A stretch of DNA of 64,000 nucleotides. Origin: Vampirovibrionales bacterium. Lineage in GTDB: Bacteria > Cyanobacteriota > Vampirovibrionia > Vampirovibrionales > JAGQHJ01. The DNA lies in contig JANWIO010000052.1 in assembly GCA_025449835.1 (NCBI GenBank), forward strand, positions 183-64,182. The letters are read 5' to 3'. The translations under genes and the position numbers were made by a program. Below, piece by piece: positions 5,663 to 49,284 of the stretch. Within the stretch, counting starts at the first letter, position 1, and the number at the start of each line of letters is the position of its first letter. Under the pieces are notes generated by a model. The model did no database searches. It saw only the letters and a program-made list of their open reading frames with translations, and was not told the origin of the DNA.

Positions 5663-5729
5663 CCTTATTTTTATTCTGCCAGCTTAGCAGATTTTTTCTT
5701 GAAGAATGTGATACTTCTCATCGTTATAC

Positions 5730-13230: not shown

Positions 13231-13321
13231 AGTTCACTCTCTTCTTAACATTCATCGGTTTTGTGATTCAACGCTATTTTATGACAAAAAAACGATCCTA
13301 TCATTTTTATGTGCAAGAGCC

Positions 13322-14928: not shown

Positions 14929-14931
14929 TAA

Positions 14932-16011
14932 TCAGCACCCCAATGGGTATAACGGCAATAGATTTGATGGGGTCTTATCCTTGGAATAACCCAAGTAATG
15001 AGAAGCCGTTGATACAAAACTCCATCCAGTTATAAGCATTAGGCTTTTGATATCTCCACCTTGTTCTAAGTAGAGTGTTGCAAATGTCCTACGAAGGGCA
15101 TGCCAACCAAACCCTGAAAAAATGCTAATATCAAAGTCTGATTCTTGAATCTCTCTCAGCAATTGCCTCATCCATTGCCCGGCGGTATGAGTGCTTAATC
15201 TTTCCCCTTTTACGCTTTGGAAAAGAGGAGCTTTCCGTTCCCGAGGAAACTGTCTCAAAAAATTTTGCAGGGTTGCTTTTGCCAATGGGGATATTGGAAC
15301 TTCTCGCTTACGATAACCTGAGCCACAATTCCCTTTACCTCGGACAACCAGGCAAACGTTATCTAAAAGATTCAAGTATTGTATTTCAAGTCCAAGGATT
15401 TCATTGAGTCTTAATCCCATCTCCCCACCAATAACGCACATTAAATGGATTTGGCAGGCCTTCAATAATTCATATCCTTTGAGATTAGAGTTAATACGAC
15501 TCCATGTGTAACGCAAAAAACGCTTGTATTCGGTGGCGGTTAAATAATTACTGTTGGATTTCTGTTCATGGCTTTTTTTAGGGATAGTATAGCGATTCAC
15601 AGGTGATTGAATCGGACCATAAATGGAAGGCAGGTAAAGCGATTTTTGGCCTGTAACATGGATTGTCAGATTTTCTTGTAAAAAAATGCAATAACGTTCA
15701 ATGGCTTTAAGACAGGCGGTTGCTCTTGTTTTTGGAGAAATATCCCGATAACAGGATTCGACGATTTTAGAAGCCAATAGCGGGTTTCCAATATCAAAGG
15801 TATCCACGGGACGTTGAATACTTGGAATTTTTTCATCATTGATTTGTACTTGCTGAAAAACATCATTCAATCGACGAAATTGTTGTTCTCGATATCGCTT
15901 GGTTAGGTTGCGATGATAGAAGCTCGCTTCGTATGCGCTTAAAGCCAGTTGATGGTGTAAAGGACGATCAACCTGATAAACATCTGGTGTGGTTTGAACA
16001 GAACTTATCAT
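14932..16011 (-). CDS. tyrosine site-specific recombinase (XerC/D-like)
   Basis: Catalytic signature GLRLNE (R), VRGKGN (K), GWHALRRTFAT (HxxR), GWSFVSTASHYL (Y). Confidence 0.8.
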   Translation of the reverse strand: MISSVQTTPDVYQVDRPLHHQLALSAYEASFYHRNLTKRYREQQFRRLNDVFQQVQINDEKIPSIQRPVDTFDIGNPLLASKIVESCYRDISPKTRATACLKAIERYCIFLQENLTIHVTGQKSLYLPSIYGPIQSPVNRYTIPKKSHEQKSNSNYLTATEYKRFLRYTWSRINSNLKGYELLKACQIHLMCVIGGEMGLRLNEILGLEIQYLNLLDNVCLVVRGKGNCGSGYRKREVPISPLAKATLQNFLRQFPRERKAPLFQSVKGERLSTHTAGQWMRQLLREIQESDFDISIFSGFGWHALRRTFATLYLEQGGDIKSLMLITGWSFVSTASHYLGYSKDKTPSNLLPLYPLGC

Positions 16012-16191
16012 TGCTTTATCTCATTATGGAAACTGAAGGTTTCTTTATCTATGGCAACCCATGGTTTCTCAAGGTTCAGAAACTAACAGAACAGAACTTC
16101 TTGCTTTTAGGCAACTGATGGATTTTGAGTAGAAGCCACAGAATTTTGTTGTAGTCTTTAATCTACTTGAGCAGGTAGCTTTTTGTTGTGG

Positions 16192-16563
16192 TTATTGGGA
16201 CCCCTTGATTTGTCGTCTTATTAGTGTGTTGGTTCTTAGGTTATTTTCAATCCAGAGATTTAAATCGCTCATCCGATAGCGAACATTCCTTCCTAGTTTG
16301 ACGAACTTTGGCCCATCACCCCGCATTCGACCTTGACGCAGCCAAGCGCACGAGCAACTTAAGACTATTGCAGCCTCTTTTTCGTTTAAAAGCTTCTCGT
16401 CAGTACCCGTATTAGGCGGTACTTCATCTGGTTTTACTGAGGGCTTCTCAACCTTTTCAGGTTTTGAGTAACTCTTTATCGCAGATTCCAGATCAGACAA
16501 TGCCATTTTCAGGTATTTTTCTAGGCTTTTGAGCAGAAAAAGCTTTTCTTCGTTTTCAAGCAT
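16192..16563 (-). CDS. AlpA/HTH_17-like DNA-binding protein (123 aa), excisionase/regulator candidate
   Basis: C-terminus AAIVLSCSCAWLRQGRMRGDGPKFVKLGRNVRYRMSDLNLWIE fits the AlpA-type winged HTH. Confidence 0.5.
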   Translation of the reverse strand: MLENEEKLFLLKSLEKYLKMALSDLESAIKSYSKPEKVEKPSVKPDEVPPNTGTDEKLLNEKEAAIVLSCSCAWLRQGRMRGDGPKFVKLGRNVRYRMSDLNLWIENNLRTNTLIRRQIKGSQ

Positions 16564-16789
16564 TGTTCAGCCCCCTGGATTGAGCTGTACTCGTGGCTTT
16601 ACCCTTAGCGTTAAGCCATTTATCTAGATCCTCTCGATAATAAAAAATCCTTCCTCGCTTAATAAATTCTGGCCCAGTACCCTGACATCTCATCATTGCT
16701 AGAGTCTTTTCAGATAATCCTAGGTAGGACGCAGCATTTTTAGTATCTAAACGGCCATCTGGAAATGTTGATATGCTTATGGAGTCCAT
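16556..16789 (-). CDS. AlpA-family excisionase/transcriptional regulator candidate (77 aa)
   Basis: AASYLGLSEKTLAMMRCQGTGPEFIKRGRIFYYREDLDKWL is the AlpA/Xis-like HTH; overlaps the downstream paralogue by 8 nt. Confidence 0.55.
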   Translation of the reverse strand: MDSISISTFPDGRLDTKNAASYLGLSEKTLAMMRCQGTGPEFIKRGRIFYYREDLDKWLNAKGKATSTAQSRGLNNA

Positions 16790-16911
16790 ATATACGCCTC
16801 TCTGCCAATTAATACATAAATATAGAGAATAAAGTAATTATTTAGAATACAATAAACTAGTTATTGACAGATTGCAATATTTAGGGAGAAAATAGAACTT
16901 GATAGAACTAG

Positions 16912-17709
16912 ATGGAGAAAGCAATGCCTCGAAAGCCATTGAAAGAGGGACAACCCAAGGTTGAAGCCCTGACGATGCGAATTAGCCCCAAAATGAAATT
17001 TGGGCTTGATCTCCTTTGTAGAAAGCAACACCGAAATCTTACCTCTGTGATGGAGTGGGCTCTAGAGAAAGCTTTAAAAGATATCAATGATGGATTGGCA
17101 ATGGAAATCGAGACATTAGATGGGCGTACAAAGCTTGTTCCAGCTCTGGATAGGCTTTGGCACACTGAAGAATGTGGAAGACTTGCCAATATAGCATTCT
17201 ATTGGCCAAGTTTGCTAACCTATGAAGAAGACTATATATGGCAAATTATCTCTAAAAATGCCTACTATTGGCGGGTTAGGGAATACGAATCTGAGATAAA
17301 TTCCCAAAAACGCAACAGTTTAACCTGGGCTCCAATTCCAGGATTGCTTCTGATTGATAAGGTTAGACAGGATTGGCCAATCCTAAAAAAAATTCGTGAT
17401 GAGCAAAGTGATCCGCTTATACTACCTTATTTTGTCCCTGGGGAACAACCAGAGCCACCAGAGTGGTTCTCAATCGAGAAAAATACAATTCCAAGCAATT
17501 TGCTAAACAAGCTGGATATCGTAAAAGTTAAGATTTTCCCCTCTCAGGATACTCAAGAAATGAAGTATAAACATGAACACAATAACCAAATCAAAACTCT
17601 TATAGAAACTTTGGAATTAAAACTTGGGAATACGACAGAAGCAGAGGAGCTTATTGAGGAAATTACTGAACGTCTTGAGCAATCTCCCCCATATTATTAT
17701 CGATACTAA
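16912..17709 (+). CDS. hypothetical island protein (265 aa), possible N-terminal ribbon-helix-helix
   Basis: ORF immediately upstream of the integrase on the same strand; no recognised domain. Confidence 0.45.
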   Translation: MEKAMPRKPLKEGQPKVEALTMRISPKMKFGLDLLCRKQHRNLTSVMEWALEKALKDINDGLAMEIETLDGRTKLVPALDRLWHTEECGRLANIAFYWPSLLTYEEDYIWQIISKNAYYWRVREYESEINSQKRNSLTWAPIPGLLLIDKVRQDWPILKKIRDEQSDPLILPYFVPGEQPEPPEWFSIEKNTIPSNLLNKLDIVKVKIFPSQDTQEMKYKHEHNNQIKTLIETLELKLGNTTEAEELIEEITERLEQSPPYYYRY

Positions 17710-17724
17710 AGAGACTTTATACTT

Positions 17725-19023
17725 ATGTCCCAAAAATTTACGAAACTGACCCGAATCAATCTCCGAAAGCTGCAACCCGGCCAGCGGTTAAATGAACATG
17801 GCATTATTTTTGAGCGCCTTGCAGATGGAGATGGTCGGTACAGCATTAACATAATGGTTGATGGGGTGCGGATCCACCGGTCTGTAGGCAAGGAGTCCGA
17901 GGGAGTAACACTGACACAGGCACAGGAATTGGTCGAAAAACTAAAAACGGATGCCAGAATGGGGCGGTTAAACCTACCCAAGAACAGAAAAACCTATTTA
18001 AGATTTGAGGAAGCTGCCAACAAGTATCTTGCAAAGCTTGGAGAAGAAGCGGGCAAAGATATCCCTCGGAAAAAGCAGCGTCTAGATCTTTATTTGATAC
18101 CCTTTTTCAAAGGTAAACCTCTGGATAAGATTACCAATTTTGACGTTGAACGGTATAAAAAGGTTCGCATTGATGCCAAGGCATCCAATGGAACCATTAA
18201 CAGGGAGTTGTCCACCTTATCACATCTTCTCAATAAGGCGATGGAATGGGGTTGGATTCATCATAGACCCTGTCAGATAAGGCGCCTAAAAGAGAACAGA
18301 GGTCGGATTGAATGGCTGACCAAAGAAGAGGTACAGAAGCTCCTGAAAGCAGCGAAAGTGGATGATTTCCCTTATGTTTACCCATTTATAGTCATTGCAC
18401 TTGAAACAGCGATGCGACGCATGGAGATTCTTTCTATTGAGATCGAGAATATCAATTTTGAGAAGCGGACGATCTATATCCCCAAAGCAAAAGCCGGAGC
18501 GAGAGAGGCATATATCAGTGAAAACCTTGAGAAATTCTTGAAAAATTACATTGAGCAAACAGTCAAACCTGGACAAAAATGGTTGTTCCCTACAGCAAAT
18601 CAAAAATTGTCTTCTACCGGACATCTGATGAATATCGAAAGACCATTTCGGCGTGTTGTTAAAACTGCCGGACTGGATGCTGCTAAAGTGGTACGTCATA
18701 CATTAAGGCATACCGCCATCAGTCACTTAGTACAAGCAGGGATTGATCTTCCAACGGTAAAGAGAATCTCCGGGCACAAAACGTTGCAAATGGTGGAGCG
18801 ATACAGCCACCAAAATCAGGAGCATATTCAGTTCGCATTAAAACGGCTGGACGATCGCTATCCGATCTTTGATGAAAGCAGCAGTCCAGATTACACCAAA
18901 ATTACACAAAACAAAAAAAATAAGCCTTCAAAGAAACAGCGAAAACCCTTATCTAAGAAGAGTGGCCCCAGTAGGATTCGAACCTACAACCAAGCGATTA
19001 TGAGTCGCCTGCTCCACCATTGA
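17725..19023 (+). CDS. int: P4-type tyrosine integrase (DUF4102/arm-binding N-terminus), 3' end overlapping tRNA-Met
   Basis: 432 aa; N-terminus LTRINLRKLQPGQRLNEHGI... arm-type; catalytic region RHTLRHTAISHLVQAGIDLPTVKRISGHKTLQMVERYSH (HxxR...Y). Confidence 0.9.
   Translation: MSQKFTKLTRINLRKLQPGQRLNEHGIIFERLADGDGRYSINIMVDGVRIHRSVGKESEGVTLTQAQELVEKLKTDARMGRLNLPKNRKTYLRFEEAANKYLAKLGEEAGKDIPRKKQRLDLYLIPFFKGKPLDKITNFDVERYKKVRIDAKASNGTINRELSTLSHLLNKAMEWGWIHHRPCQIRRLKENRGRIEWLTKEEVQKLLKAAKVDDFPYVYPFIVIALETAMRRMEILSIEIENINFEKRTIYIPKAKAGAREAYISENLEKFLKNYIEQTVKPGQKWLFPTANQKLSSTGHLMNIERPFRRVVKTAGLDAAKVVRHTLRHTAISHLVQAGIDLPTVKRISGHKTLQMVERYSHQNQEHIQFALKRLDDRYPIFDESSSPDYTKITQNKKNKPSKKQRKPLSKKSGPSRIRTYNQAIMSRLLHH
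18961..19005. repeat. 45-bp direct repeat (attL-like) within the intact tRNA-Met
   Basis: Identical to 4006-4050. Confidence 0.85.
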
Positions 19024-19034
19024 GCTATAGGGCC
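18963..19034 (-). tRNA. tRNA-Met (anticodon CAT; could also be initiator or the lysidine-modified Ile2 type)
   Basis: The reverse complement GGCCCTATAGCTCAATGGTGGAGCAGGCGACTCATAATCGCTTGGTTGTAGGTTCGAATCCTACTGGGGCCA folds as a cloverleaf with anticodon loop CTCATAA and T-loop GGTTCGAATCC. Confidence 0.85.
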
Positions 19035-36652: not shown

Positions 36653-37633
36653 TTATTGTTTGCGGGCAAAAATGGTTAAGGTTCGGCCCACCCCTTGACT
36701 TGCCAAAAAGGTATAAAAGGCTTCTCGAAACTGCCGGGCTTCGGGCGAAACATTTAATGCCTGCTCAAACTGCATTCGCTTTGAATGGCAGGCCCGGCCC
36801 ACGTCATTATCCTCAATATACCGATCACCCATGAGCAAGAAAAACTCCATGGGAAAAGAGGCTTCCTCATAAACAGACTGAAAGCCTGTTTTTTCAAGTA
36901 ACTTTCGAAGGGAGTCAAAACTAAAATAGTTCAGATGATGTGGAATTGACACCCAATATTCCGGGAAATCAAAATGCTCATGAAGCATTTTCTGGAAGAG
37001 ATTAAAATCGTTGGGCACTTCAATACAGAGAATTCCCCCGACTTCCAGTACGTCATAAGCTTTTTGGCAAAGTTCGAGGGGGTTGGGCAAGTGTTCCAGG
37101 ACTTGCCGCAAGTGAACTGCTTGAAATTTTCCTTTGAGCTGAGCAATATCAAGATTTTGAAAATAATCATGAATCACCTCAATGCCGGAGATATCTCTGG
37201 CATAGCTGGCAGCTTGCAGTGCAGGCTCAATCCCCAGTACATCCCAACCTCTATCCTCACCATAGCGCAAGAAAAACCCACCCGAGCATCCCACATCAAG
37301 GATTCGTCTAGGAGTTAAAACGTCTGGCAGCAATTCTTCCAGTTTGTCATAGCGATATTTATAAACCGACTCTCGCCAATAGGGCTGTTCTTTTGCATCT
37401 TTTTCAAGGTATTCAGGCTTATCCTCACTATAAAACTGTTCATCATACACTGTTTTTAAAAAATCAGATGAAGGTAAGGGGTCCACATGGGTATAGCCAC
37501 AGCTTTCACAGGCTATCAGCTGATAATCTTGATATTGACCAATGCAGTCTCCCTGATGCTCTTGAATTAAAGTTTCTTTCAAGATGGAATTCTCCCACGT
37601 TTCCATAAAACAATTAGTCTCTGCTGTTCTCAT
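36653..37633 (-). CDS. class I SAM-dependent methyltransferase with an N-terminal Cys-rich (zinc-ribbon-like) region
   Basis: Motif I ILDVGCSGGFFL; post-I acidic residue; CxxC...CESCGY at the N-terminus. Confidence 0.7.
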   Translation of the reverse strand: MRTAETNCFMETWENSILKETLIQEHQGDCIGQYQDYQLIACESCGYTHVDPLPSSDFLKTVYDEQFYSEDKPEYLEKDAKEQPYWRESVYKYRYDKLEELLPDVLTPRRILDVGCSGGFFLRYGEDRGWDVLGIEPALQAASYARDISGIEVIHDYFQNLDIAQLKGKFQAVHLRQVLEHLPNPLELCQKAYDVLEVGGILCIEVPNDFNLFQKMLHEHFDFPEYWVSIPHHLNYFSFDSLRKLLEKTGFQSVYEEASFPMEFFLLMGDRYIEDNDVGRACHSKRMQFEQALNVSPEARQFREAFYTFLASQGVGRTLTIFARKQ

Positions 37634-37720
37634 CGTAACAGGCCTTTGGTGACAAGACCTCCTATGAATGTTCTATCGACGCCTGACCCATCAGGACACA
37701 GCATAGGGAAAGAAAAACGC

Positions 37721-39505
37721 TTAGCTCTTAATTTCAAATCTTAAAATATGGTGGATGGCTTGAAGAACAGACTGAGCATCAATTTTCGTTTCAACAGATA
37801 ATTCTTCCTTACCCCCAAAGCGGACAAAACCATCGGGAATGGCAGCTCGGTGGAGAAAGGGCTGAAGGTGATAATCTGCCAGCATGGTTGCAATCCTGGA
37901 TCCAAGGCCCCCGGTTGAAATATTCTCTTCAAAACTCACCACCAGTTGGGCTATCTGGAATAAAGGGAGGAGATTTTTTTCTGGGAAAGGCTTAATCCAA
38001 CGGATATTAACAATACACACTTCATAGCCTTGGGAAACCAGATCTTCTCGAACCGATAAGGCCGTTCCCAAACAATTTCCAGCTGCAACCAAACAGATTT
38101 TGGCTGGATTTCCAATAATTTCAGGCTTTGTAATATCTTGGTTTTCCAATAATGGCGTATATTCATTCGATCGTACATTTTCATACGGGTGCAAAATGGC
38201 CATGGGACCCGTCGGATTTTGGCAACGCCACCGTAAAATAGCATCAACATCAAAGCGAGTTCCCGCATAGAAAATCTGTAGGTTGGGCAAAGCTTGTAAA
38301 TATGAAAGATCATAAATGCCATGATGGGTTGGTCCATCAAATCCAGCAAACCCAGAGCGGACCACTAAAAGTGTGGCTGGTAAATTCATAAAACAGAGGT
38401 CATGAATAATGGGATCCATGGCCCGTTGCATAAACGTTGCCTGAAAGCATACCACAGGATGTTTTCCTTGAATGGCCAAGCCTGCTGCCATACTTACCGC
38501 ATGTTGCTCTGCCATACCCACATCAATAGCCCGATCTGGAAACCGTTCTAATATCTGATCCAGGTTAGACGCATAAGGAGTGGCTGGCGTAATGGCAACA
38601 ATTGATTCATCCTGCTCCATTAACTGATACAAGGTTTTAGATGCCACCAGAGCATAGGTTTCCCCCACCAATGTTGGTGAAGCCCCTTCACCTGTTTCAG
38701 GATTAAAGGGCATCGAAAAATGCATCCGATACTTATGGCCGTCGGCATAAGGAAGTCCTTTGCCTTTCATGGTTTTCACATGAACCACGACTGGGCGATC
38801 CGTCACCAGGGTTTTGGCATTTTTAAAACCCTCTATTAAACTGGCCATGTCATGACCATCAGGCACAGCCAGATATTGATATCCCAGCCCTTCAAAAAAG
38901 CCTCTGGATTTCTCCTGCCAGTTTGAACCGGAAAATAAATGCTTAATCCCACCCACATTGGGTGCAATGGCCATGCCGTTATCATTGACAACAATAATAA
39001 AGGGTAACCCTTGTAACATCCCAAAATTGAGCCCTTCAAAAGACAAGCCTTCCACCAAAGACCCATCCCCCACGACGGCGACTGTCAGTTGGTTCTGATG
39101 ATTGAGTTTATGGGCCATGGCCATCCCAATAGCCGTGGAAAGAGCCGTTCCAGCGTGGGTGGCATCAATAATGTCGGCTTCATTTTCTTCTCGGGCCAAG
39201 AAACGAGACATCCCAAAAGGCTGATTTAAAGTTGCAAATTCTGCTTTCCGGCCGGTCAAAATTTTGTGTGTATAGCCCTGATGCCCTGTATCAAAAACGA
39301 GATGTTCAACAGCGGAATCAAATACCGCATGTAACGCAACGGTAAGTTCAATGGTGCCAAGATTCGCCCCAATATGCCCACCGGTTTTTGAAATAGAGTC
39401 AATTAAAAATTGCCGAATTTCCTCACAAAGCTTAGTGAGTTCTGGGATTGAAAGACTTTTAATATCAGAAGGTTGATGAATTGTATCAATCAATTGCGCC
39501 GACAT
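37721..39505 (-). CDS. dxs: 1-deoxy-D-xylulose-5-phosphate synthase
   Basis: GGHIGANLGTIELTVALHAVFD...DTGHQGYTHKILTGR; TPP motif GDGSLVEG...NDN. Confidence 0.85.
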   Translation of the reverse strand: MSAQLIDTIHQPSDIKSLSIPELTKLCEEIRQFLIDSISKTGGHIGANLGTIELTVALHAVFDSAVEHLVFDTGHQGYTHKILTGRKAEFATLNQPFGMSRFLAREENEADIIDATHAGTALSTAIGMAMAHKLNHQNQLTVAVVGDGSLVEGLSFEGLNFGMLQGLPFIIVVNDNGMAIAPNVGGIKHLFSGSNWQEKSRGFFEGLGYQYLAVPDGHDMASLIEGFKNAKTLVTDRPVVVHVKTMKGKGLPYADGHKYRMHFSMPFNPETGEGASPTLVGETYALVASKTLYQLMEQDESIVAITPATPYASNLDQILERFPDRAIDVGMAEQHAVSMAAGLAIQGKHPVVCFQATFMQRAMDPIIHDLCFMNLPATLLVVRSGFAGFDGPTHHGIYDLSYLQALPNLQIFYAGTRFDVDAILRWRCQNPTGPMAILHPYENVRSNEYTPLLENQDITKPEIIGNPAKICLVAAGNCLGTALSVREDLVSQGYEVCIVNIRWIKPFPEKNLLPLFQIAQLVVSFEENISTGGLGSRIATMLADYHLQPFLHRAAIPDGFVRFGGKEELSVETKIDAQSVLQAIHHILRFEIKS

Positions 39506-39633
39506 GTGATCGCTTCTGCCTCCGCCCTAAAAAACAATACCCTTACTGGAATCTGAACCCCTGAAGTTATGCAATAATAAAAGTAGAATACTCATTATTC
39601 TAACATAATCAAGTTTAAGAAGTTGTATTCGCC

Positions 39634-40434
39634 GTGCAAAACGCCAACCTATTAACCTCTAGCGAAGATTTAGCCCGAAAAATCAGGCGAGATGCTCTGA
39701 ATCAAATTTATACGGCTGGCTCAGGTCACCCAGGCGGAGCATTGTCTTGTGCCGATCTTCTTGCGGTCCTTTTTGGTGAAGTCTTAAATTATCAGAGCCC
39801 GCAGCAGGATCACTTTATCCTTTCCAAAGGACAATCCTCTGCGGCACTCTATGCTGCTTGGGCCCATACGGGTTTAATCCCCTTGGAAGACCTGAAAGGC
39901 TTTCGAAAACTCAACCACCACTTGCAAGGGCTTCCTCATGTGTTGCCAACCCCTTTGGCCGAAACAAGCACTGGCTCATTAGGACAAGGGTTTTCAGTAG
40001 CAGTTGGGATGGCTTTGGGCTATCGACATCAAAACAATCCATGCCGAATTGTTACAGTATTGGGAGACGGTGAGCTACAGGCCGGCATTGTTTGGGAAGC
40101 GGCAATGTGTGCTGCCCATTATCAACTTGGCCAACTTACAGCCATCATTGATTACAATAAGCTTCAAAGTGATTCATCCAACGATCAGGTGATTCAGCTT
40201 GAGCCCTTGGCTGATAAATGGCGTGCCTTTGGGTGGGAGGTTCGAGAAATTGATGGTCATAATCATGAGGCCATTCGTAACGCCTTAAACTATGCAGGAA
40301 GCAAACCGCTTGTGATTATTGCCCATACCATTAAGGGCAAAGGTGTGAGCTGGATGGAAAATATCCCGGCCTGGCATGGCAGCGTTACGTTAACCGATGA
40401 ACAAATTCAATCAGCATTGGAAGAACTCGCATGA
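39634..40434 (+). CDS. transketolase, N-terminal (TPP-binding) subunit; GTG start
   Basis: GHPGGALSCADLLAVLF, GSLGQGFSVAVGMAL, VLGDGELQAGIVWEA; 266 aa; split-transketolase architecture. Confidence 0.85.
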   Translation: MQNANLLTSSEDLARKIRRDALNQIYTAGSGHPGGALSCADLLAVLFGEVLNYQSPQQDHFILSKGQSSAALYAAWAHTGLIPLEDLKGFRKLNHHLQGLPHVLPTPLAETSTGSLGQGFSVAVGMALGYRHQNNPCRIVTVLGDGELQAGIVWEAAMCAAHYQLGQLTAIIDYNKLQSDSSNDQVIQLEPLADKWRAFGWEVREIDGHNHEAIRNALNYAGSKPLVIIAHTIKGKGVSWMENIPAWHGSVTLTDEQIQSALEELA

Positions 40435-41399
40435 GCATACAACCCCAACTCGTTGGATACAGCAGTAATACCCTCAGAGAAGCCTTTGGTGAAGCCTTGG
40501 CAGGCTTAATGGCAGAATTTCCCAATGTGGTTGTCCTCGACGGTGATGTTGCAGGTGGAACTGGAACCCATCATGTTCGAACAAAGTATCCACACCGGTT
40601 TTACCAAATCGGTATCGCAGAACAAAACATGATGTGTATTGCCGCAGGGATGTCGCAATCCGGCTTACTTCCGGTTGCTTCAACATTTGCCGTATTTAGC
40701 TTAAGAGGCTTGGAAATGATTCGGCTTTCCATTGCCTGTGATAATCGCAACGTGAAGATTGTTTGTAGTCATCCTGGCCTGGACACCGGGCCTGATGGTG
40801 CATCTGCTCAATGCTTGGAGGATTTAGGAACCTTTATAGCGCTGCCCAATATGACGGTGGTGTCACCGACTGATCATATTGAAACGGCCCTGGCCACCCG
40901 AGCCATTATAGAACATGTGGGGCCTGTTTATATGCGAACCGGCCGAAGCCCAGCGCCTCGAATATTTGATAACACCCACAGATTTGAACTTGGCAAAGGA
41001 CAAATTATTCGGCAAGGAGACAATTTAACCATGGTGGGCTGTGGTGTTCAGGTTGCACGATGTCTGGCTGCTGCGGAATTACTCTCCAATGATGGGATTT
41101 CCGCCCGGGTTGTCAACATGGCAACATTAAAGCCCATTGATAAAGACTTACTCATTCAATGCGCTGTGGACACGGGGGCTATTCTTACTTCAGAAGATCA
41201 CAATCGCCTAAACGGGTTGGGTGCTCAGGTTGCTCGTGTCCTTTCAGAACATTACCCAGTCCCGATATTCTGCCATGGTGTGAACGATACTTTTGGAGAA
41301 TCAGGCGAACCACAAGAATTGGCTGAAAAATATCAGCTTAACCCATCGTATATCGCCGAACATGCAAGGCAATTATTGCAGCGTAAAGCAGGCCGTTAA
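40431..41399 (+). CDS. transketolase, C-terminal (pyrimidine-binding) subunit
   Basis: 322 aa; FYQIGIAEQNMMCIAAGMS...; 4-nt overlap with the N-subunit gene. Confidence 0.85.
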   Translation: MSIQPQLVGYSSNTLREAFGEALAGLMAEFPNVVVLDGDVAGGTGTHHVRTKYPHRFYQIGIAEQNMMCIAAGMSQSGLLPVASTFAVFSLRGLEMIRLSIACDNRNVKIVCSHPGLDTGPDGASAQCLEDLGTFIALPNMTVVSPTDHIETALATRAIIEHVGPVYMRTGRSPAPRIFDNTHRFELGKGQIIRQGDNLTMVGCGVQVARCLAAAELLSNDGISARVVNMATLKPIDKDLLIQCAVDTGAILTSEDHNRLNGLGAQVARVLSEHYPVPIFCHGVNDTFGESGEPQELAEKYQLNPSYIAEHARQLLQRKAGR

Positions 41400-41429
41400 A
41401 GATTCGTTCAAAAGCGCTCACATCGTTTT

Positions 41430-43451
41430 TTAGCAATTTTGCAATTGAACCTTTAATTTTTTATCTTTTGTAGTTTGCGTTGGCTCTTCTTTTTTATGGG
41501 CTGGAAAATCTTTAAACACTGGGTCTAATGTATTAATAAGCCCTTTGGCACCTTTTTGAACGGCTTTGTATAATAGCTTGGTCCCTTCAAGATTCTCTTT
41601 TAATGCCTCAATATCACCTTCTAGAGATTCTGTATCTTCTAAAATCATTTTGCGACCATAATCTTTTGTAAACTTAAACATATCTCTGCGAATATAGCAG
41701 TTAATTAAAGCATTTTTTGCTGTAAGTGCCACGAGTTCCTGATCCAATTCTGACATTTTTTGTAAGCGCTCGCCAAGAGGTATGCTGAAAGCCTCGTCTT
41801 TCTTCAATTCTTTGAGCGCTTTTTTAACTTCTTTCAAGCCTTTCTCTGCAAGCACAAGGAGGGTATCTAAATCTTGACGATCTTGATTATATTGATCATA
41901 AACTTTTTGGTAAGTTTCAGAATAAGGCTTCTCAACCACGTAACGTTCATTTAGCAAAGCTTCCAACGCCGCCTTTGGATGAGATTCAGAAACAGCATAT
42001 TTTTCAACCGCTTCTGAGAAGGGAAGGTGTTCATACCCCTCAATATATGCCCCACCCTCAGAGCAATTCACCAAGTTAAACTCAGAGCGATTGCGTTTAA
42101 TCGTCTCAAACGCTTTTCGGAAAGCATCGTACGCAATATCCGTTTCCAGTTTTTCACCATGCCATCCCTTGATTTCAGTTAATCGACCCCAAAACTGCTT
42201 TTTCTTCCGTTCAAGCTCTTCATCATCTTTAAAAAAGACACCATAAAATTCGTCGAGATTTTCCCATTCCAATTGCTTATCACCGTTCTCATCCGTATAA
42301 AAGCGTTTTCCTGCATATACAGAATTTTGGGCGTACATTTTGCCTTCCGGATAGGCCAAATCTTGACCCAATAGAAATATGGGATTACATCCCATTTTCA
42401 TTAAATGGATCAAGGCTGTTATTGAAACCGTTCCATGATGGTTGTAACCAAAAAGGGACTTATCCCAAGCCGCAGATAACCAATGGGTAAGAGGATCTTG
42501 GCTCGCATACGAAATTAATATACGTTTTGCGGGATACTCAAAAACATCTTGATATGTTTGGGGAAGAACGACGAAATTCGTATCGGGAATAAAAGAAACA
42601 TTTTCGAGTTGATGCGTAATATTTTGAACTTCGATGAGATTCACAAAATCAGGCGTAATCTGAGCCTTATCTAAAGCTTTTGCGGCTTGCCCCACACAAG
42701 CAATAACCATGTTGTCTTGATATTTTTTAAGTGTCTCAAGGACACCGGGTCTATCCAAAGAAGGTCCCGCCGAAACCACAACACCTGGAACATTTTTACA
42801 ATGATCATGCAAAAACATCGCATCCGGATATTGGATAAAAACCGGCAAGTTCTCTAAAGAGCTTCGAGTAAAGGATTCCATCATGACTAACGCTGTGTTT
42901 TGAGAAATAATATTGGAATGAAGACCCGATTTAATCTCATCTAACACATTAAGGTACATTTCGGCTTCTTTTTCTTCATACGCAGGCAGCGCTGTTATGC
43001 GTAGGTTATCACCCATTAAATATTGTTGAGACAGAATTAAGGGAATTTGCTCTAAAGACGTCACAATGGAAATTCGTTTGGAGGCAAATTCTTGTGAAAA
43101 ATCAATCACCTCTAAGGTTTGCCGAATCACCTCTAAGTAAGGCTCATAAATAATCATTTGAACTTCAGAACTAACGTAGGCCCGGCGAAGCAAATACCCC
43201 ACTCCCAAGCCAAATATAAATATAATACTGTCCTGATCTCTGGAATCCTCGGGCATAGTTGCATCAAAAACTTCTTTGGCTTCTCCAATGGGATCCGCCA
43301 TACGGTGAAGCGCAATTTCCTCATAAGCCAAGTTAATATCCCCGTTTGGCCCCACAAATAATTGCGTCTTGCCCGAAAGTGTTATTTCTTCAACTTGCTT
43401 TGCAAGTGCTGGTTGAAGTTTTCTTAATGCCGCTAGATTCTTCTCTAACAT
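41430..43451 (-). CDS. Maf-like (motility accessory factor) / DUF115 MptE-like family protein
   Basis: 673 aa; N-terminus MLEKNLAALRKLQPALAKQ...GDINLAY..IALHRMADPIGEAKEVF reproduces the characteristic Maf/DUF115 N-terminal pattern; central alpha/beta region. Confidence 0.55.
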   Translation of the reverse strand: MLEKNLAALRKLQPALAKQVEEITLSGKTQLFVGPNGDINLAYEEIALHRMADPIGEAKEVFDATMPEDSRDQDSIIFIFGLGVGYLLRRAYVSSEVQMIIYEPYLEVIRQTLEVIDFSQEFASKRISIVTSLEQIPLILSQQYLMGDNLRITALPAYEEKEAEMYLNVLDEIKSGLHSNIISQNTALVMMESFTRSSLENLPVFIQYPDAMFLHDHCKNVPGVVVSAGPSLDRPGVLETLKKYQDNMVIACVGQAAKALDKAQITPDFVNLIEVQNITHQLENVSFIPDTNFVVLPQTYQDVFEYPAKRILISYASQDPLTHWLSAAWDKSLFGYNHHGTVSITALIHLMKMGCNPIFLLGQDLAYPEGKMYAQNSVYAGKRFYTDENGDKQLEWENLDEFYGVFFKDDEELERKKKQFWGRLTEIKGWHGEKLETDIAYDAFRKAFETIKRNRSEFNLVNCSEGGAYIEGYEHLPFSEAVEKYAVSESHPKAALEALLNERYVVEKPYSETYQKVYDQYNQDRQDLDTLLVLAEKGLKEVKKALKELKKDEAFSIPLGERLQKMSELDQELVALTAKNALINCYIRRDMFKFTKDYGRKMILEDTESLEGDIEALKENLEGTKLLYKAVQKGAKGLINTLDPVFKDFPAHKKEEPTQTTKDKKLKVQLQNC

Positions 43452-43611
43452 GAACGCTCAATTCCTCTCTCATCCATTGGAATATTAAACCATCGAAGAT
43501 CCCTCCCTAATTCAGGTTAAGGCTTTATGGATCAAATTGCCTCATCCACTAAATGGAGATTATAGGCTGTAAATCGTCTCTGGTGTTTTAGCCCCAAATC
43601 AATGCATATTC

Positions 43612-44850
43612 TCAAACCAGTGTTTTATCGGGTTGCACATTAATTTTCACACAGGCCAATGCATCTTGGACTCTAATTAAAGCTTCTTCCCGATTTTCAC
43701 CCCCCACCATCACATATCCAAACCTATCGGGATGAGACCGGATTTGAGGCTGTTGCTCTCCTTTTTGTCGAAAAAACCCATATCGAACCAAGCCAGGGGT
43801 TTGTTTTAAGGCATCCTCCCCACTAACAGATTCTACAATTCCAGGCTCAGGAAACCAGTACCGACTTGAAGCAGCACGATGGAATAAAGGCGTTAAGCTT
43901 TCGGGTAAAATTTTCTCTCCTAAGGCTGATGAAATGACCACATTCACCAAATCAACACCGGTTGCTGTGGGAATAAGGTGTGTTGCCAACCACCCACCCG
44001 ACAAACGGGCAGCAAGCTCAATAATCATGGGTTTTCCATCAGGATTAATCACTAAATCGCCTTTAATAATGCCGCTTTGAATCCCCATAGCAGCAGCGCC
44101 TTTCAGAAGCAATGTATCGATTTCCTGGCATTGATCACCCGAAATGGGAGCTGGAATCGTACCACCATCTTCAATCACGTAGGGTGCAAATTGTTTGAGC
44201 CTATCGTAATGACGTTCGGCAATACCTGGCGTGTAACAGCGACTATCTAAAATATAGGATTCCGTGGAGAGTTGAAGCCCCGGAATAAATTCCTCAATCA
44301 TGACAATTCCCGAATCACCCCAACGCTGCGACTCTTGAAATGCCCACGCTAAATCCACTTCTGGAGACAGCAGAAGAACCCCTCTGGCCCCGCGCCCATC
44401 GATGGGCTTTAACACAAAGCGCTTATGGGGAGATTGGTTCACGATCTCCATCAGTTGGGCTTCGTTTTTGACTTCCTGAAACCAAGGACAAGCAACCCCA
44501 TGAGATACAAAACTGGTTTTCATCAACAGCTTATTGCTGGCTAACCGGGCTGATTCGAGTGAAATTCCCGGTAATCCCAAAGCATTTGCAACAGACGCCA
44601 CCGTAAAAGGGACATCATTGGCAATGGTCATCACCCCATGAATTGGGTGTTGCTGATGATATTTTGCCACCACTGCAACGGTTTCGTCTGCATTTCGGGT
44701 CGAAGCAATGAGAATATCATCGGCATACTCAAAAGCAGGTGCTTGTGGATTCATATCAGACCCCACCACATGCAATCCCCTAGCTTTCGCTTTTTGATAA
44801 GCTGGAATTTGCTCTATTCCAGCCCCAATAATCAATAACGTCTTAGTCAA
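43612..44850 (-). CDS. ATP-grasp domain protein
   Basis: 412 aa; FVLKPIDGRGARGVLLL, IVMIEEFIPG, IIELAARLSGGW are ATP-grasp hallmarks. Confidence 0.7.
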   Translation of the reverse strand: MTKTLLIIGAGIEQIPAYQKAKARGLHVVGSDMNPQAPAFEYADDILIASTRNADETVAVVAKYHQQHPIHGVMTIANDVPFTVASVANALGLPGISLESARLASNKLLMKTSFVSHGVACPWFQEVKNEAQLMEIVNQSPHKRFVLKPIDGRGARGVLLLSPEVDLAWAFQESQRWGDSGIVMIEEFIPGLQLSTESYILDSRCYTPGIAERHYDRLKQFAPYVIEDGGTIPAPISGDQCQEIDTLLLKGAAAMGIQSGIIKGDLVINPDGKPMIIELAARLSGGWLATHLIPTATGVDLVNVVISSALGEKILPESLTPLFHRAASSRYWFPEPGIVESVSGEDALKQTPGLVRYGFFRQKGEQQPQIRSHPDRFGYVMVGGENREEALIRVQDALACVKINVQPDKTLV

Positions 44851-45583
44851 AATACATCCCCCCGTTCAAATTAAGGGTTTGTCCTGTGACATAAGCCGCT
44901 TCAGGAGAAGCCAGGTAAAGAACCCCTGCACCAACTTCGGTGGGGTACCCGAGACGCCCCATCGGAATAGTTTTCACTTTTTCTTGCCCAGCCGAACTGG
45001 CCAATTCAGCAGTAACCATATCGGTTTCCACCAGCCCTGGCGAAATAGCGTTAGTTGTAACACCTTGACTGGAGTAGAGCTTGGCCATAGACCGGGTTAA
45101 ATTAATTAATGCGGCTTTAGACGCTGCATAATGAACCTGATTCATCCCGCCCCATTGCCCTCCAATGGAACTCATATTAATAATTCTGCCAAACCCATCC
45201 TGAATCATTTCTGGCAGGGCTTCTCGAATACAACGAACAGCTCCTAACAAATTCACCGAGAGCATTTTTTCCCAGTCAGCATCTGTAATTTCAAGAAAGG
45301 GCTTTTCCTGAGCCATAGCGGCATTATTCACCAGGATAGAAACCGGCCCCCAATGATTTTTAATGGTTTCAAAAGCGGCTTGCACGGAACGACTATCGGA
45401 AATATCCACTTGAACCGTCATGGCATTTTCATGGCCTTCGGCGATTTTTTGAGCCCGTTCTTCTTCGACTCGATATCCAATCGCTACAAAATACCCTGCC
45501 TGAAGCAGTACCTGGCAAATCCCAACGCCTATTCCCCGGCTTCCCCCGGTGACAAAAGCAACGCGTCTCTTTTGTTCCATCAT
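44843..45583 (-). CDS. SDR-family oxidoreductase (FabG-like)
   Basis: VAFVTGGSRGIGVGI (TGxxxGxG), NNAA, YAASKAAL (YxxxK). Confidence 0.85.
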   Translation of the reverse strand: MMEQKRRVAFVTGGSRGIGVGICQVLLQAGYFVAIGYRVEEERAQKIAEGHENAMTVQVDISDSRSVQAAFETIKNHWGPVSILVNNAAMAQEKPFLEITDADWEKMLSVNLLGAVRCIREALPEMIQDGFGRIINMSSIGGQWGGMNQVHYAASKAALINLTRSMAKLYSSQGVTTNAISPGLVETDMVTAELASSAGQEKVKTIPMGRLGYPTEVGAGVLYLASPEAAYVTGQTLNLNGGMYFD

Positions 45584-45682
45584 AAGCCCATCATAACTTA
45601 ATACTTGTGGTTAGTAGCATAATGGATGAACCCAAAAGGGACAACCTGAAAATAAAGGATTTTACAGGAGAATAAATGAGGA

Positions 45683-45892
45683 TTATGACCTACCAGAGGT
45701 GGCGTAATAGCTGCCTTCAATCCACAGTTTACCGTCTTCCAGCTCGGTTTTTACAATTGCCCACTGCAAAACACGGGCATTTTGGGGTAAAAACTGCTGA
45801 ATTTGAGACGTAACAGTTTCCAAAGATGGTGGCATGGTCTCTGTTGTGATGTTACAGTGAAATGTCCTAATCGCAGAATCTTCTAAAGACAT
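45683..45892 (-). CDS. small hypothetical protein (69 aa) in the glmS-SDR-ATP-grasp-Maf operon
   Basis: Tightly packed (3-nt gap to glmS); no domain recognised. Confidence 0.4.
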   Translation of the reverse strand: MSLEDSAIRTFHCNITTETMPPSLETVTSQIQQFLPQNARVLQWAIVKTELEDGKLWIEGSYYATSGRS

Positions 45893-45894
45893 GT

Positions 45895-47745
45895 TTATTC
45901 AACCGTGACACTTTTGGCCAAGTTTCTGGGCTGATCAACATCTTTGCCAAGGTATTCTGCAATGTGATAGGCCAACAACTGCAGCGGGATCACGGTTAAA
46001 ATGGGTGACAACATTTCTTCCAGCTGTGGAATAAACACAGCATCCTCAAATGTATCCCGTACATCCTCAGGCATGGGGCCACTATTGACTGCAATGACTT
46101 GGGCATCCCGAGCCTTGGCTTCCTGGCAGTTGGAAATCATTTTATCGTAGACAATCCCATCGGTTAAAATGGCAATAACCGGAATAGAAGGATCCAACAT
46201 GGCAATGGGGCCGTGTTTGAGTTCACTGGCCGAATACCCTTCCGCATGGATATAACTGATTTCTTTTAATTTTAGAGCCCCTTCTAGGGCAACAGGATAG
46301 TTAATGCCACGGGCAATAAAGATCAAATCACGGACGTTCCCGTATTTTTTGGCCAAAGTTTGAATTTCTTCGGAGGTGTGCAGAACGTTTTCCACAAGAA
46401 CCGGTAGGCGTTGCAATCCTACTTTTAAGGATTTCAGAAGCTCCGGTGAAGATTGTTGGCGACGTTCGGCCAAATAAATTCCCAAAAGATACAACACCGT
46501 TACCTGGGCTGCAAAACTTTTGGTTGCGCAAACACTCACTTCAATTCCAGCCCGAACGGGAAGTACAAAATGAGATTCTCTGGCAATGGTTGAATCTTCT
46601 CGGTTGGTAATGGCCAACACTTTGGCACCTTTGTTCACGCATTGCCGAAGGGCCGTAATGGTATCCGCGGTTTCACCCGACTGCGAGATCCCAATAACCA
46701 GGGTTTTTTCATCCACCAGCGGATTTCGATACCGAAACTCCCCAGCAGCTTCCACTTCTACAGGAATTCGGACCAACTCTTCAATAAAATATCGTCCGAC
46801 CAAGCCAGCATTATAAGATGTGCCGCAAGCTACCACATAAACCCGTTCAATTTCGTTTATTTTGGCGTCAGCCGCCTCATCAAAGAGCTGAATGGGTTCT
46901 TCAGGACTCAAAAGGCGCATGCTTAAGGAATTTCTCAGCACATCGGGCTGCTCATAAATTTCCTTCAGCATAAAGTGTTTAAATCCTTTTTTATCAACCG
47001 CCAAGTTACCGGTGCTAATCTTCTCAACAAGGGGTTCAACCGGTTGACCATTAAAATTAATAACTTTAACGCCTTCGGGTGACAACTCAACGATTTCTTC
47101 ATTTTGTAGATAGGAAACCTGGTTGGTATGCTCTACCAAAGCAACCACATCGCTTCCTAAAAACAGCTCATCATCACCAATTCCCACAACAAGAGGTGCA
47201 TGATTACGAACACCATAGAGTTTATCAGGATGTCGTTTATCAATAATCACCAAGGCATAGGCTCCCACGAGACGTCGGGTGACTTGCTGTAGAACTTTTA
47301 AGAAATCCGTTTCGGTTTTGGCCAAGTCTTCAATTAAGTGCACGACACATTCCGTATCGGTCTTCGAATGAAAAATATGGCCTTTGCGAGTAAGCTCTTC
47401 TCGAAGCTCCCCAAAGTTTTCAACAATTCCATTATGTATTAATGCGATATTGCCATCACAGCTTACATGCGGATGGGGGGTCTCATCATTGGGTGCGCCA
47501 TGGGTTGCCCACCGAGTGTGGCCAATCCCCAAATGGCGGCTATGGCCATTTTTTTGAAACAACTCCACAGGAAGTCGACTTCGTAAATTATTGAGCTTCC
47601 CGGAAGCTTTATAAACATTGAGACAATCTTGTTCTAAAAAGGCAACGCCTGCAGAGTCATAACCTCGATATTCTAATGTTTGAAGACTTTCTAAAATAAC
47701 AGGAACAACGGATTTTTTGCCGAGATAGCCCACAATACCGCACAT
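45895..47745 (-). CDS. glmS: glutamine--fructose-6-phosphate aminotransferase (isomerising)
   Basis: N-terminal MCGIVGY (Ntn Cys); two SIS domains; 616 aa. Confidence 0.9.
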   Translation of the reverse strand: MCGIVGYLGKKSVVPVILESLQTLEYRGYDSAGVAFLEQDCLNVYKASGKLNNLRSRLPVELFQKNGHSRHLGIGHTRWATHGAPNDETPHPHVSCDGNIALIHNGIVENFGELREELTRKGHIFHSKTDTECVVHLIEDLAKTETDFLKVLQQVTRRLVGAYALVIIDKRHPDKLYGVRNHAPLVVGIGDDELFLGSDVVALVEHTNQVSYLQNEEIVELSPEGVKVINFNGQPVEPLVEKISTGNLAVDKKGFKHFMLKEIYEQPDVLRNSLSMRLLSPEEPIQLFDEAADAKINEIERVYVVACGTSYNAGLVGRYFIEELVRIPVEVEAAGEFRYRNPLVDEKTLVIGISQSGETADTITALRQCVNKGAKVLAITNREDSTIARESHFVLPVRAGIEVSVCATKSFAAQVTVLYLLGIYLAERRQQSSPELLKSLKVGLQRLPVLVENVLHTSEEIQTLAKKYGNVRDLIFIARGINYPVALEGALKLKEISYIHAEGYSASELKHGPIAMLDPSIPVIAILTDGIVYDKMISNCQEAKARDAQVIAVNSGPMPEDVRDTFEDAVFIPQLEEMLSPILTVIPLQLLAYHIAEYLGKDVDQPRNLAKSVTVE

Positions 47746-47898
47746 AACACACCTTTATTTTCTTTATAGCTGAGGGAACGGTTATATACTATTATCGTGA
47801 AAGTGACTATCCTTTGCAATCCCAAACTTACTAAAGTATTTGTTAAGACAAAATGGGGCAATTCGCCAATTTGGTAATCCTTTAATAGTGTAACTTTT

Positions 47899-49284
47899 TT
47901 AAGTATAAGCAAAGGTTGCATCAATGCGGATTTGGCTCAAAAGCTGCGTCAATTGGATAATTTCTATCTCTTCAAGATGATTAACCACATCGAGCAAGCG
48001 ATCTTGCAGGTTCAGTGGGATATACTGACGGGTTAATTTTTTAAATTTCTGAACAACGGCCTCTTGCGACATCGGATTTTTGTAAAACCCTTCATAATCC
48101 ATCTTCTGCAAGAATAAAGATTTCCCGTCCTGCAACTGAATATTTAAACTACACGGCATCGTCTCCGGAAATTGGGCACTCATTTTTTCCGAGGGGCGAA
48201 TCGTCACCTTTTGCAGCAACTCCTGAACATCGGGGCGTAAAATACGACTGATCATAAATTGCTCCGGCATCACTTCACCATCGAGTAACGCCACTGCAAT
48301 TAAATACGGTAAGCTGTGATCCGCTTCTTCTTTGGTCTGAACGTTATTTTTAGCCCCTTCTTCACCGCCGCCAATGATGTTATATGCCACATCAAAGATA
48401 TCCACCTCAATGCTCACAATATCATGGGGTTGAATCTCATACTGTTCCCTCAGTTCGAGGATTCCTTCCAAGGCTGATTGAGAATGAATTTCGGCATTAT
48501 ATTTTTTCAGGCTGGTTTGAGGTATCTTATCGAGCTTTTCATGGGCCCAATCAATTTCAAACGGCTTAGCAATACTTTCCATAAAGCCTTTACTGCCTTC
48601 AAAAACTTCCAGTGGCCCTGTAATACCGTAACTTGCCAAAAGCGTTGCATGGGTTGCACCAAAAGCTGTATTGGGATAAGCCAGTCCCTTCCAGTTAGAC
48701 AAAGCCCCTGTCCGCGTCACACGTAATGCATTATACGCCGTACCACTAATGGCAAGGGCATTTGCTATTTGCTCCGGCCTTAAACCCAATGCTTTTGAAA
48801 CACCCGCAGCAACTGCATAGGAACCTTGAGTCGTATGGTCAAATCCTTTATCTCTCACCGGGGCTTCATCACTTAACCGACACTGTACCTGATAGGCAAC
48901 CGCCAGGGCTACACAAAAATCGCGCCCACTTCGATTTGCAAACTCTGAAGCCGCTAGAACAGCACCAATGTTATCACTGGGATGGCAGGTTTCCTGTTTG
49001 GCTAGATAACTATCATTAAAATCTAAATACCGAACAAGGGCGCTATTGTAAAAAGCAGCCCTATCAATGGCAGCTTTTCCATTTCCCATTAAAGTACAGG
49101 CGTCAGAATGTCCCAAATTATCAATCATTTTATGAACAATCCGCATGGGAGGAGCGCTTAAAGCGCCAATGGCACACCCTAAGGCGTCAATAACCCGTAA
49201 TTTTATCTGTTCAACAACCTCGGGCGATAAATCTTCAAAAGAGGCCCTGTCTACAAAATCAGCAAGCTGCTCTACAATCTTCAT
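47899..49284 (-). CDS. MmgE/PrpD-family protein (2-methylcitrate dehydratase-like)
   Basis: 462 aa from the ATG at 49284 (RBS GAGGTG); PrpD-family conserved blocks (YLDFNDSY, HPSDNIGA); the track ORF extends further upstream but lacks an RBS there. Confidence 0.75.
   Translation of the reverse strand: MKIVEQLADFVDRASFEDLSPEVVEQIKLRVIDALGCAIGALSAPPMRIVHKMIDNLGHSDACTLMGNGKAAIDRAAFYNSALVRYLDFNDSYLAKQETCHPSDNIGAVLAASEFANRSGRDFCVALAVAYQVQCRLSDEAPVRDKGFDHTTQGSYAVAAGVSKALGLRPEQIANALAISGTAYNALRVTRTGALSNWKGLAYPNTAFGATHATLLASYGITGPLEVFEGSKGFMESIAKPFEIDWAHEKLDKIPQTSLKKYNAEIHSQSALEGILELREQYEIQPHDIVSIEVDIFDVAYNIIGGGEEGAKNNVQTKEEADHSLPYLIAVALLDGEVMPEQFMISRILRPDVQELLQKVTIRPSEKMSAQFPETMPCSLNIQLQDGKSLFLQKMDYEGFYKNPMSQEAVVQKFKKLTRQYIPLNLQDRLLDVVNHLEEIEIIQLTQLLSQIRIDATFAYT

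Follow-up and report, generated by a model that had tools for sequence, protein, structure and literature searches.

The subject of this report is a run of genes lying between positions 36653 and 49284 of a 64-kb window (the whole stretch of DNA that was analysed) from a Vampirovibrionales bacterium. It contains a gene for a Maf-family protein, flanked on one side by genes for an ATP-grasp ligase, a short-chain dehydrogenase/reductase (SDR), a 69-aa open reading frame (ORF), GlmS and an MmgE/PrpD-family protein, and on the other side by genes for a split transketolase, a DXS-like enzyme and a methyltransferase. An earlier note, written from the sequence alone, had taken the six genes from 41430 to 49284 for one operon in which a modified sugar or acyl group is made and attached to a protein or glycan. 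The six minus-strand ORFs do lie at these coordinates, and profile searches confirmed their family assignments. The gene calls of the source record agree on all six, down to the 69-aa ORF and the start at 49284.

Genes of the stretch and their families

The genes and features are listed below, with TPP for thiamine pyrophosphate and SAM for S-adenosylmethionine.

36653-37633, minus strand: SAM-dependent methyltransferase (Pfam Methyltransf_23)
37721-39505, minus strand: DXS-like TPP enzyme (TIGR00204), for which a possible housekeeping dxs role is left standing
39634-40434, plus strand: tktN, N-terminal TPP-binding subunit of a split transketolase (Pfam/NCBIfam)
40431-41399, plus strand: tktC, C-terminal subunit of the split transketolase, overlapping tktN by 4 bp and converging on the Maf gene
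41430-43451, minus strand: Maf, 673 aa, MptE-like/DUF115, no TPR domain
43612-44850, minus strand: ATP-grasp protein of the L-amino-acid-ligase type, 412 aa, TTG start (ATPgrasp_N, ATP-grasp_3, LAL_C2)
44843-45583, minus strand: FabG-like SDR ketoreductase, 246 aa
45683-45892, minus strand: small ORF with an LQWAIVK motif, 69 aa, outside the decoration module discussed below
45895-47745, minus strand: GlmS, 616 aa (TIGR01135), outside the decoration module
47791-47819, minus strand: predicted sigma-70-like glmS promoter, TTGCAA-17-GATAAT, from a consensus scan
47899-49284, minus strand: MmgE/PrpD-family protein, 461 aa, ORF extendable to 49443, outside the decoration module

The six genes had been described as tightly spaced, which is true of glmS and the small ORF, separated by 2 bp, and of the SDR and ATP-grasp genes, which overlap by 8 bp, but not of the gaps between the PrpD-like gene and glmS (153 bp), the small ORF and the SDR gene (99 bp), and the ATP-grasp and Maf genes (160 bp). 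In these three gaps, terminator-like and promoter-like sites are no commoner than in shuffled sequence, and RNA folding is unremarkable (z between 0.1 and 0.4). A sigma-28-type promoter pattern has no match in the gaps or 5' of any gene of the region. Rfam models, including that of the glmS ribozyme, match nothing in the window, nothing in the gaps even at E up to 1, and nothing 5' of the glmS genes of relatives.

GlmS is a full-length equivalog, scoring 781 bits against TIGR01135 (cut-off 418) and 796 bits against NF001484. The 461-aa protein matches both MmgE/PrpD domains of Pfam, N- and C-terminal, and falls below all PrpD equivalog cut-offs (151, 132 and 104 bits vs 950, 575 and 458). Its best solved relatives, cis-aconitate decarboxylase and 2-methylcitrate dehydratase, are equally distant, at ~85-92 bits.

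The Maf protein and the cassette beside it

The Maf assignment of the 673-aa protein holds: it is a true member of this glycosyltransferase family, with a predicted GT-A-type fold. It scores 99.5 bits against PF01973 (cut-off 34.6), which bears out the DUF115 assignment of the earlier note, and 38.9 bits against the Maf N-terminal domain PF20157 (cut-off 23.5); at 115 bits against the NCBIfam PseD domain model, vs a PseD cut-off of 670 bits, it is no PseD equivalog. A single-sequence search of the PDB with Maf returned no match and a profile was needed; the profile of 16 Maf orthologues matches PDB 5MU5 at E 4e-12. This entry, the Maf of Magnetospirillum magneticum AMB-1 and the sole solved Maf, has the same three-part architecture at an identity of ~15%. 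When the AlphaFold model (pLDDT 89.5) is compared by Foldseek, 5MU5 again ranks first, with a match along the whole length (E 3e-19, TM 0.54-0.57). All 16 orthologues keep the motifs GPSLD (D233) and GQDL (D364) unchanged, and these line up with GPSID and GVDL in 5MU5. The Mafs of Shewanella oneidensis reportedly need a conserved acidic residue (D247/D261) for activity, to which either D233 or D364 may correspond.

The AlphaFold model places four long helices at the C-terminus of Maf (residues 512-647). The Shewanella Mafs use a TPR domain or the small protein GlfM for flagellin binding (bioRxiv 10.1101/2023.12.03.569772), whereas the Maf of the window lacks a TPR domain and is not followed by a small GlfM-like gene. 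By analogy, the C-terminal helices may fill the flagellin-binding role of the TPR domain or GlfM.

Some Maf orthologues at 50-55% identity are followed directly by genes for NeuB, a long CMP-sugar synthetase and a GH57 protein, and others have a PseB/LegB-like dehydratase and DegT directly 5'. Because of these neighbours, the Maf clade is tied to nonulosonic acid (NulO) donors. As a side observation, a weak, partly conserved stretch, TCTCCATT.A...GAGG..ATTTG, occurs ~90 nt 5' of the Maf start in the window (43452-43611, minus strand) and in three other loci (L087, L007 and L005); it could be a leader, a regulatory element or a tiny upstream ORF.

The neighbourhood of the ATP-grasp gene was followed in 80 metagenome loci fetched around its homologues (L090-L169), with neighbours tallied; a separate sample comprised 80 Maf loci found by genome scan. 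An SDR gene lies directly 5' of the ATP-grasp gene in 58/70 loci with enough flank, and a TPP enzyme is encoded within 3.3 kb upstream in 44/54. This enzyme is of the acetolactate synthase (ALS) type in 27/54 loci, a split transketolase in 16/54 and DXS-like in one (L166); in 6/54, a second NeuB-like gene replaces it and the SDR is also missing, and 4/54 have no TPP enzyme. NeuB is encoded downstream of the ATP-grasp gene in 44/55 loci. Frequent partners are an unusually long (~590 aa) CMP-sugar synthetase and a GH57-family protein, the latter present anywhere in the locus in 39/80; no GH57 gene was found locally in the window. The four-part cassette consists of a TPP carboligase, a FabG-like ketoreductase, an ATP-grasp ligase and a SAM methyltransferase, and it normally lies inside NulO loci. 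The ATP-grasp family spans Gammaproteobacteria, Methylobacter, Bacteroidota, Verrucomicrobiota and Chlorobiaceae at 55-65% identity across metagenome-assembled genomes (MAGs). The proteins of the window are ~42-60% (ATP-grasp) and 45-59% (SDR) identical to their cassette counterparts.

Three loci illustrate the arrangement. In the first (L085), two flagellin genes, FlaF and a TPR protein gene precede Maf, the methyltransferase, an ALS-type TPP enzyme, the SDR, the ATP-grasp protein, NeuB, a long CMP-sugar synthetase and GH57, with DegT and a PseB/LegB-like dehydratase alongside. The second, from Ca. Anammoxibacter, a planctomycete (L078), has the order methyltransferase, DXS-like enzyme, SDR, ATP-grasp protein and then a Maf-TPR gene. 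The third, from a Chlorobiaceae MAG (L086), contains the same core in a NulO locus without Maf, adjoined by glycosyltransferases and an ABC transporter. Flagellin genes lie beside the cassette in L085 and in L169.

The genes of the window beyond Maf have counterparts in cassette loci. Compared over its full length, the methyltransferase shows 41% identity to that of L085, whose gene is flanked by those for Maf and the TPP enzyme, and it is 38% identical to the one beside the DXS-like gene in L078; the methyltransferase and DXS-like genes are adjacent in both the window and L078. The tktN product is 45-56% identical to those encoded directly 5' of tktC, SDR, ATP-grasp and NeuB in metagenome loci, and the tktC product 47-60% identical to its cassette counterparts. 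The genes of this transketolase clade are found directly 5' of SDR-ATP-grasp-NeuB. By sequence, tktN and tktC are the predicted TPP component of the cassette. The DXS-like protein is 52-53% identical to that of L078 (3205-4965), which is encoded directly 5' of SDR and ATP-grasp near Maf. It and the split transketolase belong to the TPP-enzyme families of DXS and of split transketolases (e.g. 6YAJ), and its alignment with solved DXS structures spans the entire protein; however, both it and the L078 protein lack the long DXS loop, and where the aligned solved DXS reads GPTALRFPKG and DRAGITGSDG, both read GPMAILHPYE and VRSGFAGFD. The arginine lost from GPTALRFPKG is one which we take to be the substrate-phosphate-binding arginine of DXS; the canonical DXS motif at the LRFPKG position is RYPRG. 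The probable role of the DXS-like protein is that of an accessory carboligase in the module.

A narrower reading would confine the glycan genes to SDR, ATP-grasp and Maf, perhaps with the methyltransferase, and regard the transketolase and DXS-like genes as housekeeping genes that lie nearby by chance. The DXS-like protein does score above the DXS equivalog cut-off (TIGR00204, 514 bits vs 466), the two transketolase halves together reach ~545 bits vs a 488-bit transketolase model, an rpe gene lies in the same window, and these genes are on the other strand or parted from SDR-ATP-grasp. We nevertheless consider this reading unlikely, given the 16/54 loci from unrelated metagenomes in which a 45-60% identical split transketolase stands 5' of SDR-ATP-grasp-NeuB, the DXS-like orthologue between methyltransferase and SDR-ATP-grasp in L078, and the two DXS-motif substitutions and the methyltransferase/DXS-like adjacency common to both genomes. 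The functional cluster is probably the stretch from 36653 to 45583, with methyltransferase, DXS-like enzyme, tktN, tktC, Maf, ATP-grasp protein and SDR. It extends from Maf in the direction opposite to that proposed in the earlier note, by way of the split transketolase and DXS-like genes to the methyltransferase.

The sole genetically studied example of the cassette that was found is sfmABCDE (SO_3261-SO_3265) of S. oneidensis, which is required for the flagellin O-glycan (PMC3765264). SfmA resembles NeuB, SfmB is an IlvB-like TPP enzyme, SfmC an SDR similar to 3-oxoacyl-ACP reductases, SfmD a SAM methyltransferase and SfmE an ATP-grasp protein of 412 aa; the operon lies beside the Maf gene SO_3259 (PMC3765264). 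Deletion of any of sfmA-D abolishes motility, while deletion of the ATP-grasp gene merely reduces spreading; the filament is lost on deletion of sfmA, sfmB or sfmD and the sfmC mutant retained one (PMC3765264). In the flagellin glycan, a 274-Da NulO bears a C9H16O7 moiety of 236 Da, which can have as many as two methyls (236-264 Da), and the authors found just one other Shewanella species with the cluster (PMC3765264). A literature search found no biochemistry on the cassette after this 2013 paper.

The same enzyme families lie beside a Maf (Maf-2, SO_3259) in Shewanella and in the window, the ATP-grasp protein has 412 aa in both, and Maf is outside the sfm transcript, as in the window. However, the TPP enzymes of the window are a split transketolase and a DXS-like protein instead of an ALS/IlvB type, there is no NeuB to correspond to the NeuB-like SfmA, the cassette genes are on two strands around Maf, and the small GlfM of Shewanella has no counterpart 3' of Maf, where Maf itself has the C-terminal four-helix region.

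The Campylobacter jejuni/coli island (pse/ptm/leg, with PseD/PseE/Maf) also has Maf beside NulO biosynthesis and decoration genes, with several paralogues per genome. The Campylobacter legionaminic-acid pathway includes the GlmS-like PtmF and the SDR PtmA. The decoration enzymes of Campylobacter differ, and PtmF is a specialised paralogue, in contrast to the housekeeping glmS of the window.

The closest solved relatives of the ATP-grasp protein are 4DIM and the L-amino-acid ligase 3VOT (profile E 2e-35 and 1e-32). It shares the ATP-grasp fold with LAL_C2 with 4DIM and with the L-amino-acid ligases (BL00235/3VOT, BacD), although its context is NulO biosynthesis and theirs dipeptide antibiotics. 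The fold, the LAL_C2 domain and the profile matches imply, by analogy, acyl-phosphate chemistry that would join a carboxylate to an amine.

The glmS pair and the PrpD-like gene

The context of glmS was compared with that of its three closest orthologues (76, 80 and 81% identity), in two loci (L088 and L089) and a JGI contig. In all three, an ORF of 62-69 aa lies 9-15 bp 3' of glmS; after it, the relatives carry the unrelated genes tex, uvrC or tyrS, and 5' of glmS all three have a HEAT-repeat gene on the opposite strand. None of PrpD, SDR, ATP-grasp and Maf occurs around glmS in these relatives. The small ORFs of the window, L088 (9869-10057) and L089 (9864-10073), for which homology was compared, contain the invariant LQWAIVK. 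The family (58-77 aa) is small, with ~10 small homologues of the 69-aa ORF among 1.8 billion representatives.

Among the promoter candidates in the gaps, that of glmS alone gained comparative support. Both hexamers and their spacing are kept in L088 and L089, ~60-90 bp upstream of glmS, and the surroundings common to the three genomes read GGATTGCA..AGG...CTT..C.ATAAT. A gene-free leader of ~500 bp, without an Rfam match, precedes glmS in the relatives. Since glmS and the small ORF are kept together in unrelated contexts and the promoter is conserved, they are on comparative sequence grounds a conserved housekeeping pair with its own predicted promoter, separate from the decoration module, and GlmS is a vertically inherited housekeeping enzyme. 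The LQWAIVK protein may be a GlmS-associated factor.

Two more specific roles were considered and rejected. The 69-aa ORF is neither a carrier protein nor a GlfM-like Maf adaptor, as its homologues follow glmS where no Maf, SDR or ATP-grasp gene is nearby. A role of glmS as a dedicated PtmF-like entry enzyme is contradicted by its absence from the 80 ATP-grasp loci and by the unrelated contexts of its orthologues.

The PrpD-like gene is a lone lineage-specific neighbour of glmS. It occurs in none of the fetched Maf, ATP-grasp or glmS loci, and in the window it is divergent from a hemE-hemN-hemH-hemY operon.

The single operon proposed in the earlier note, running from PrpD through glmS, the small ORF, SDR and ATP-grasp to Maf, would have GlmS feed a dedicated amino-sugar pool, as PtmF/PtmA do in Campylobacter. 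The six genes are indeed adjacent and co-directional, and read-through of gaps without terminator-like structure is possible. Furthermore, SfmC is weakly similar to PtmA (PMC3765264), and a GlmS-like gene adjoins Maf in a Gastranaerophilales MAG (L023, 7517-8539; 34% identity over 359 aa). The latter is the sole glmS-type exception among the 80 Maf loci, in none of which PrpD or the small ORF occurs; glmS, PrpD and the small ORF are likewise found in 0/80 ATP-grasp loci. The equivalog-level match of GlmS, the 76-81% identical orthologues that keep the small ORF in unrelated, PrpD-free neighbourhoods, and the conserved predicted promoter between PrpD and glmS make the single operon very improbable. 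Synteny breaks on both sides of glmS and the small ORF, and separate transcription of glmS, which the earlier note had named as evidence that would speak against it, is essentially what the conserved promoter points to, by comparison of genomes rather than by RNA-seq. The idea of a modified-sugar protein-glycosylation pathway itself survives for SDR, ATP-grasp and Maf; glmS, the small ORF and PrpD drop out of it.

The L023 gene is probably the SIS isomerase part of a GlmS-like protein; it recalls PtmF of Campylobacter and is distinct from the housekeeping glmS of the window.

Elsewhere in the window, positions 4562-19034 hold a mobile/defence island. It encodes a Fic protein, the type I restriction-modification genes hsdR, hsdS and hsdM, among which a KwaB-like gene is embedded, and a pair of tyrosine integrases; the gene of the second integrase overlaps a tRNA gene (18963-19034). 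Two tandem CxxCxxCC (PF03692) genes lie at 58401-59695, and a homologue is found near a Maf paralogue in a relative MAG (L003).

Lineage, acceptor and proposed pathway

The closest relatives of the Maf gene are in Vampirovibrionaceae bacterium NZW_1234, an 'uncultured cyanobacterium' MAG and Cyanobacteria bacterium HKST-UBA04, followed by Gastranaerophilales and Melainabacteria. GlmS is 76% identical to an NZW_1234 protein, with named matches in Melainabacteria, Vampirovibrio sp., Vampirovibrionales and Gastranaerophilales. For the ATP-grasp protein, NZW_1234 has a relative at 62% identity, encoded on a contig together with fliM/N-fliO-fliP-fliQ-fliR, and the NZW_1234 MAG has three Maf paralogues. 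Vampirovibrio chlorellavorus, which swims by means of one polar flagellum, bears type IV pili as well, and Vampirovibrionales and Gastranaerophilales are inferred to have had flagella ancestrally (PMC4451040). The evidence points to a flagellated lineage, Vampirovibrionaceae (Melainabacteria), and not to Chlamydiae. The earlier note had called the pathway especially notable for a non-flagellated Chlamydiae-like lineage; this argument falls because the lineage belongs to the flagellated Vampirovibrionia, with a swimming cultured member (PMC4451040) and fliMN-fliOPQR in the closest MAG.

We consider it likely, with a probability of about 0.7, that the stretch consists of three unrelated units, namely the PrpD-like gene, the glmS unit and, at 36653-45583, a flagellin-glycan decoration cluster that is a rearranged form of the cassette. 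Several observations weigh against this. The cassette is fragmented, with the TPP genes not 5' of SDR but 2-6 kb away, beyond Maf, and with tktN and tktC on the opposite strand. The score of the DXS-like protein exceeds the equivalog cut-off for DXS, and a housekeeping role is conceivable for the transketolase. The 99 bp that part the small ORF from the SDR gene contain neither a terminator nor a clear promoter, which makes read-through from glmS into SDR-ATP-grasp possible; any such read-through may be passive, the coupling not being conserved. The likeness to the Sfm proteins is one of domain families, gene order and protein lengths. NeuB (by tblastn at E 1e-2), CMP-sugar synthetase, PseB/DegT and flagellar genes are all absent from the 64-kb window, and for this reason the model has to assume that other parts of the genome encode the sugar donor and the flagellin target. 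Finally, within 10 kb, Maf occurs in 2/80 and flagellin in 1/80 ATP-grasp loci, so that the cassette alone implies no flagellar target. As most copies of the cassette have no Maf nearby, it is the transferase and not the cassette that determines the acceptor.

The acceptor could accordingly be sought outside the flagellum, with the decorated NulO destined for lipopolysaccharide, capsule, pilin or an S-layer protein, and Maf acting on a target other than flagellin. The general scarcity of Maf and flagellin beside the cassette, the glycosyltransferases and ABC transporter beside it in Chlorobiaceae (L086), the lack of any flagellar gene in the window and the type IV pili of V. chlorellavorus (PMC4451040) are consistent with such a target. 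However, all characterised Mafs act on flagellin, the closest fold is that of the flagellar Maf 5MU5, the closest MAG has flagellar export genes together with three Maf paralogues, and the cassettes of L085 and L169 adjoin flagellin genes, so that a non-flagellar acceptor appears distinctly unlikely. A tblastn search of the Maf loci with an alphaproteobacterial-type flagellin gave 2 matches, in a search that is insensitive and is not evidence of absence. By analogy with the characterised members of the family, flagellin Ser/Thr would be the acceptor of Maf.

For the flagellin-glycan decoration cluster, the following pathway may be envisaged. NulO core enzymes encoded elsewhere would supply a CMP-activated diamino-nonulosonate of the pseudaminic or legionaminic type. 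As judged from the enzyme families, the TPP enzyme or enzymes would form an alpha-hydroxyketone unit, which the SDR would reduce, and the methyltransferase would methylate the appendage unit. The ATP-grasp enzyme is postulated to form an amide or related bond between a carboxylate and an amine, whereby the appendage would be attached to, or completed on, the sugar. Maf would then transfer the decorated CMP-NulO sugar to flagellin Ser/Thr before export, as its characterised relatives suggest.

We tentatively propose, while holding it to be somewhat less than an even chance, that the cassette builds an undescribed polyhydroxylated, methylated NulO appendage, that interchangeable TPP enzymes specify different appendages, and that the window, with a two-TPP version, encodes an unseen flagellin glycan. 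For annotation, it matters that the divergent DXS subfamily scores just above the NCBIfam cut-off, so that automated pipelines would call it DXS; where transketolase or DXS is annotated in a locus of this kind, a role in central metabolism should not be taken for granted. The sfm-type cassette was reported in 2013 to be almost confined to one species, but it is widespread across phyla and has at least two common forms by TPP enzyme, ALS-type and split transketolase, the DXS-like form being seen only in L078 and L166. These natural TPP variants offer a handle on the chemistry of the cassette. If the proposal is true, the cluster would add a new glycan to the non-photosynthetic, often predatory relatives of the cyanobacteria.

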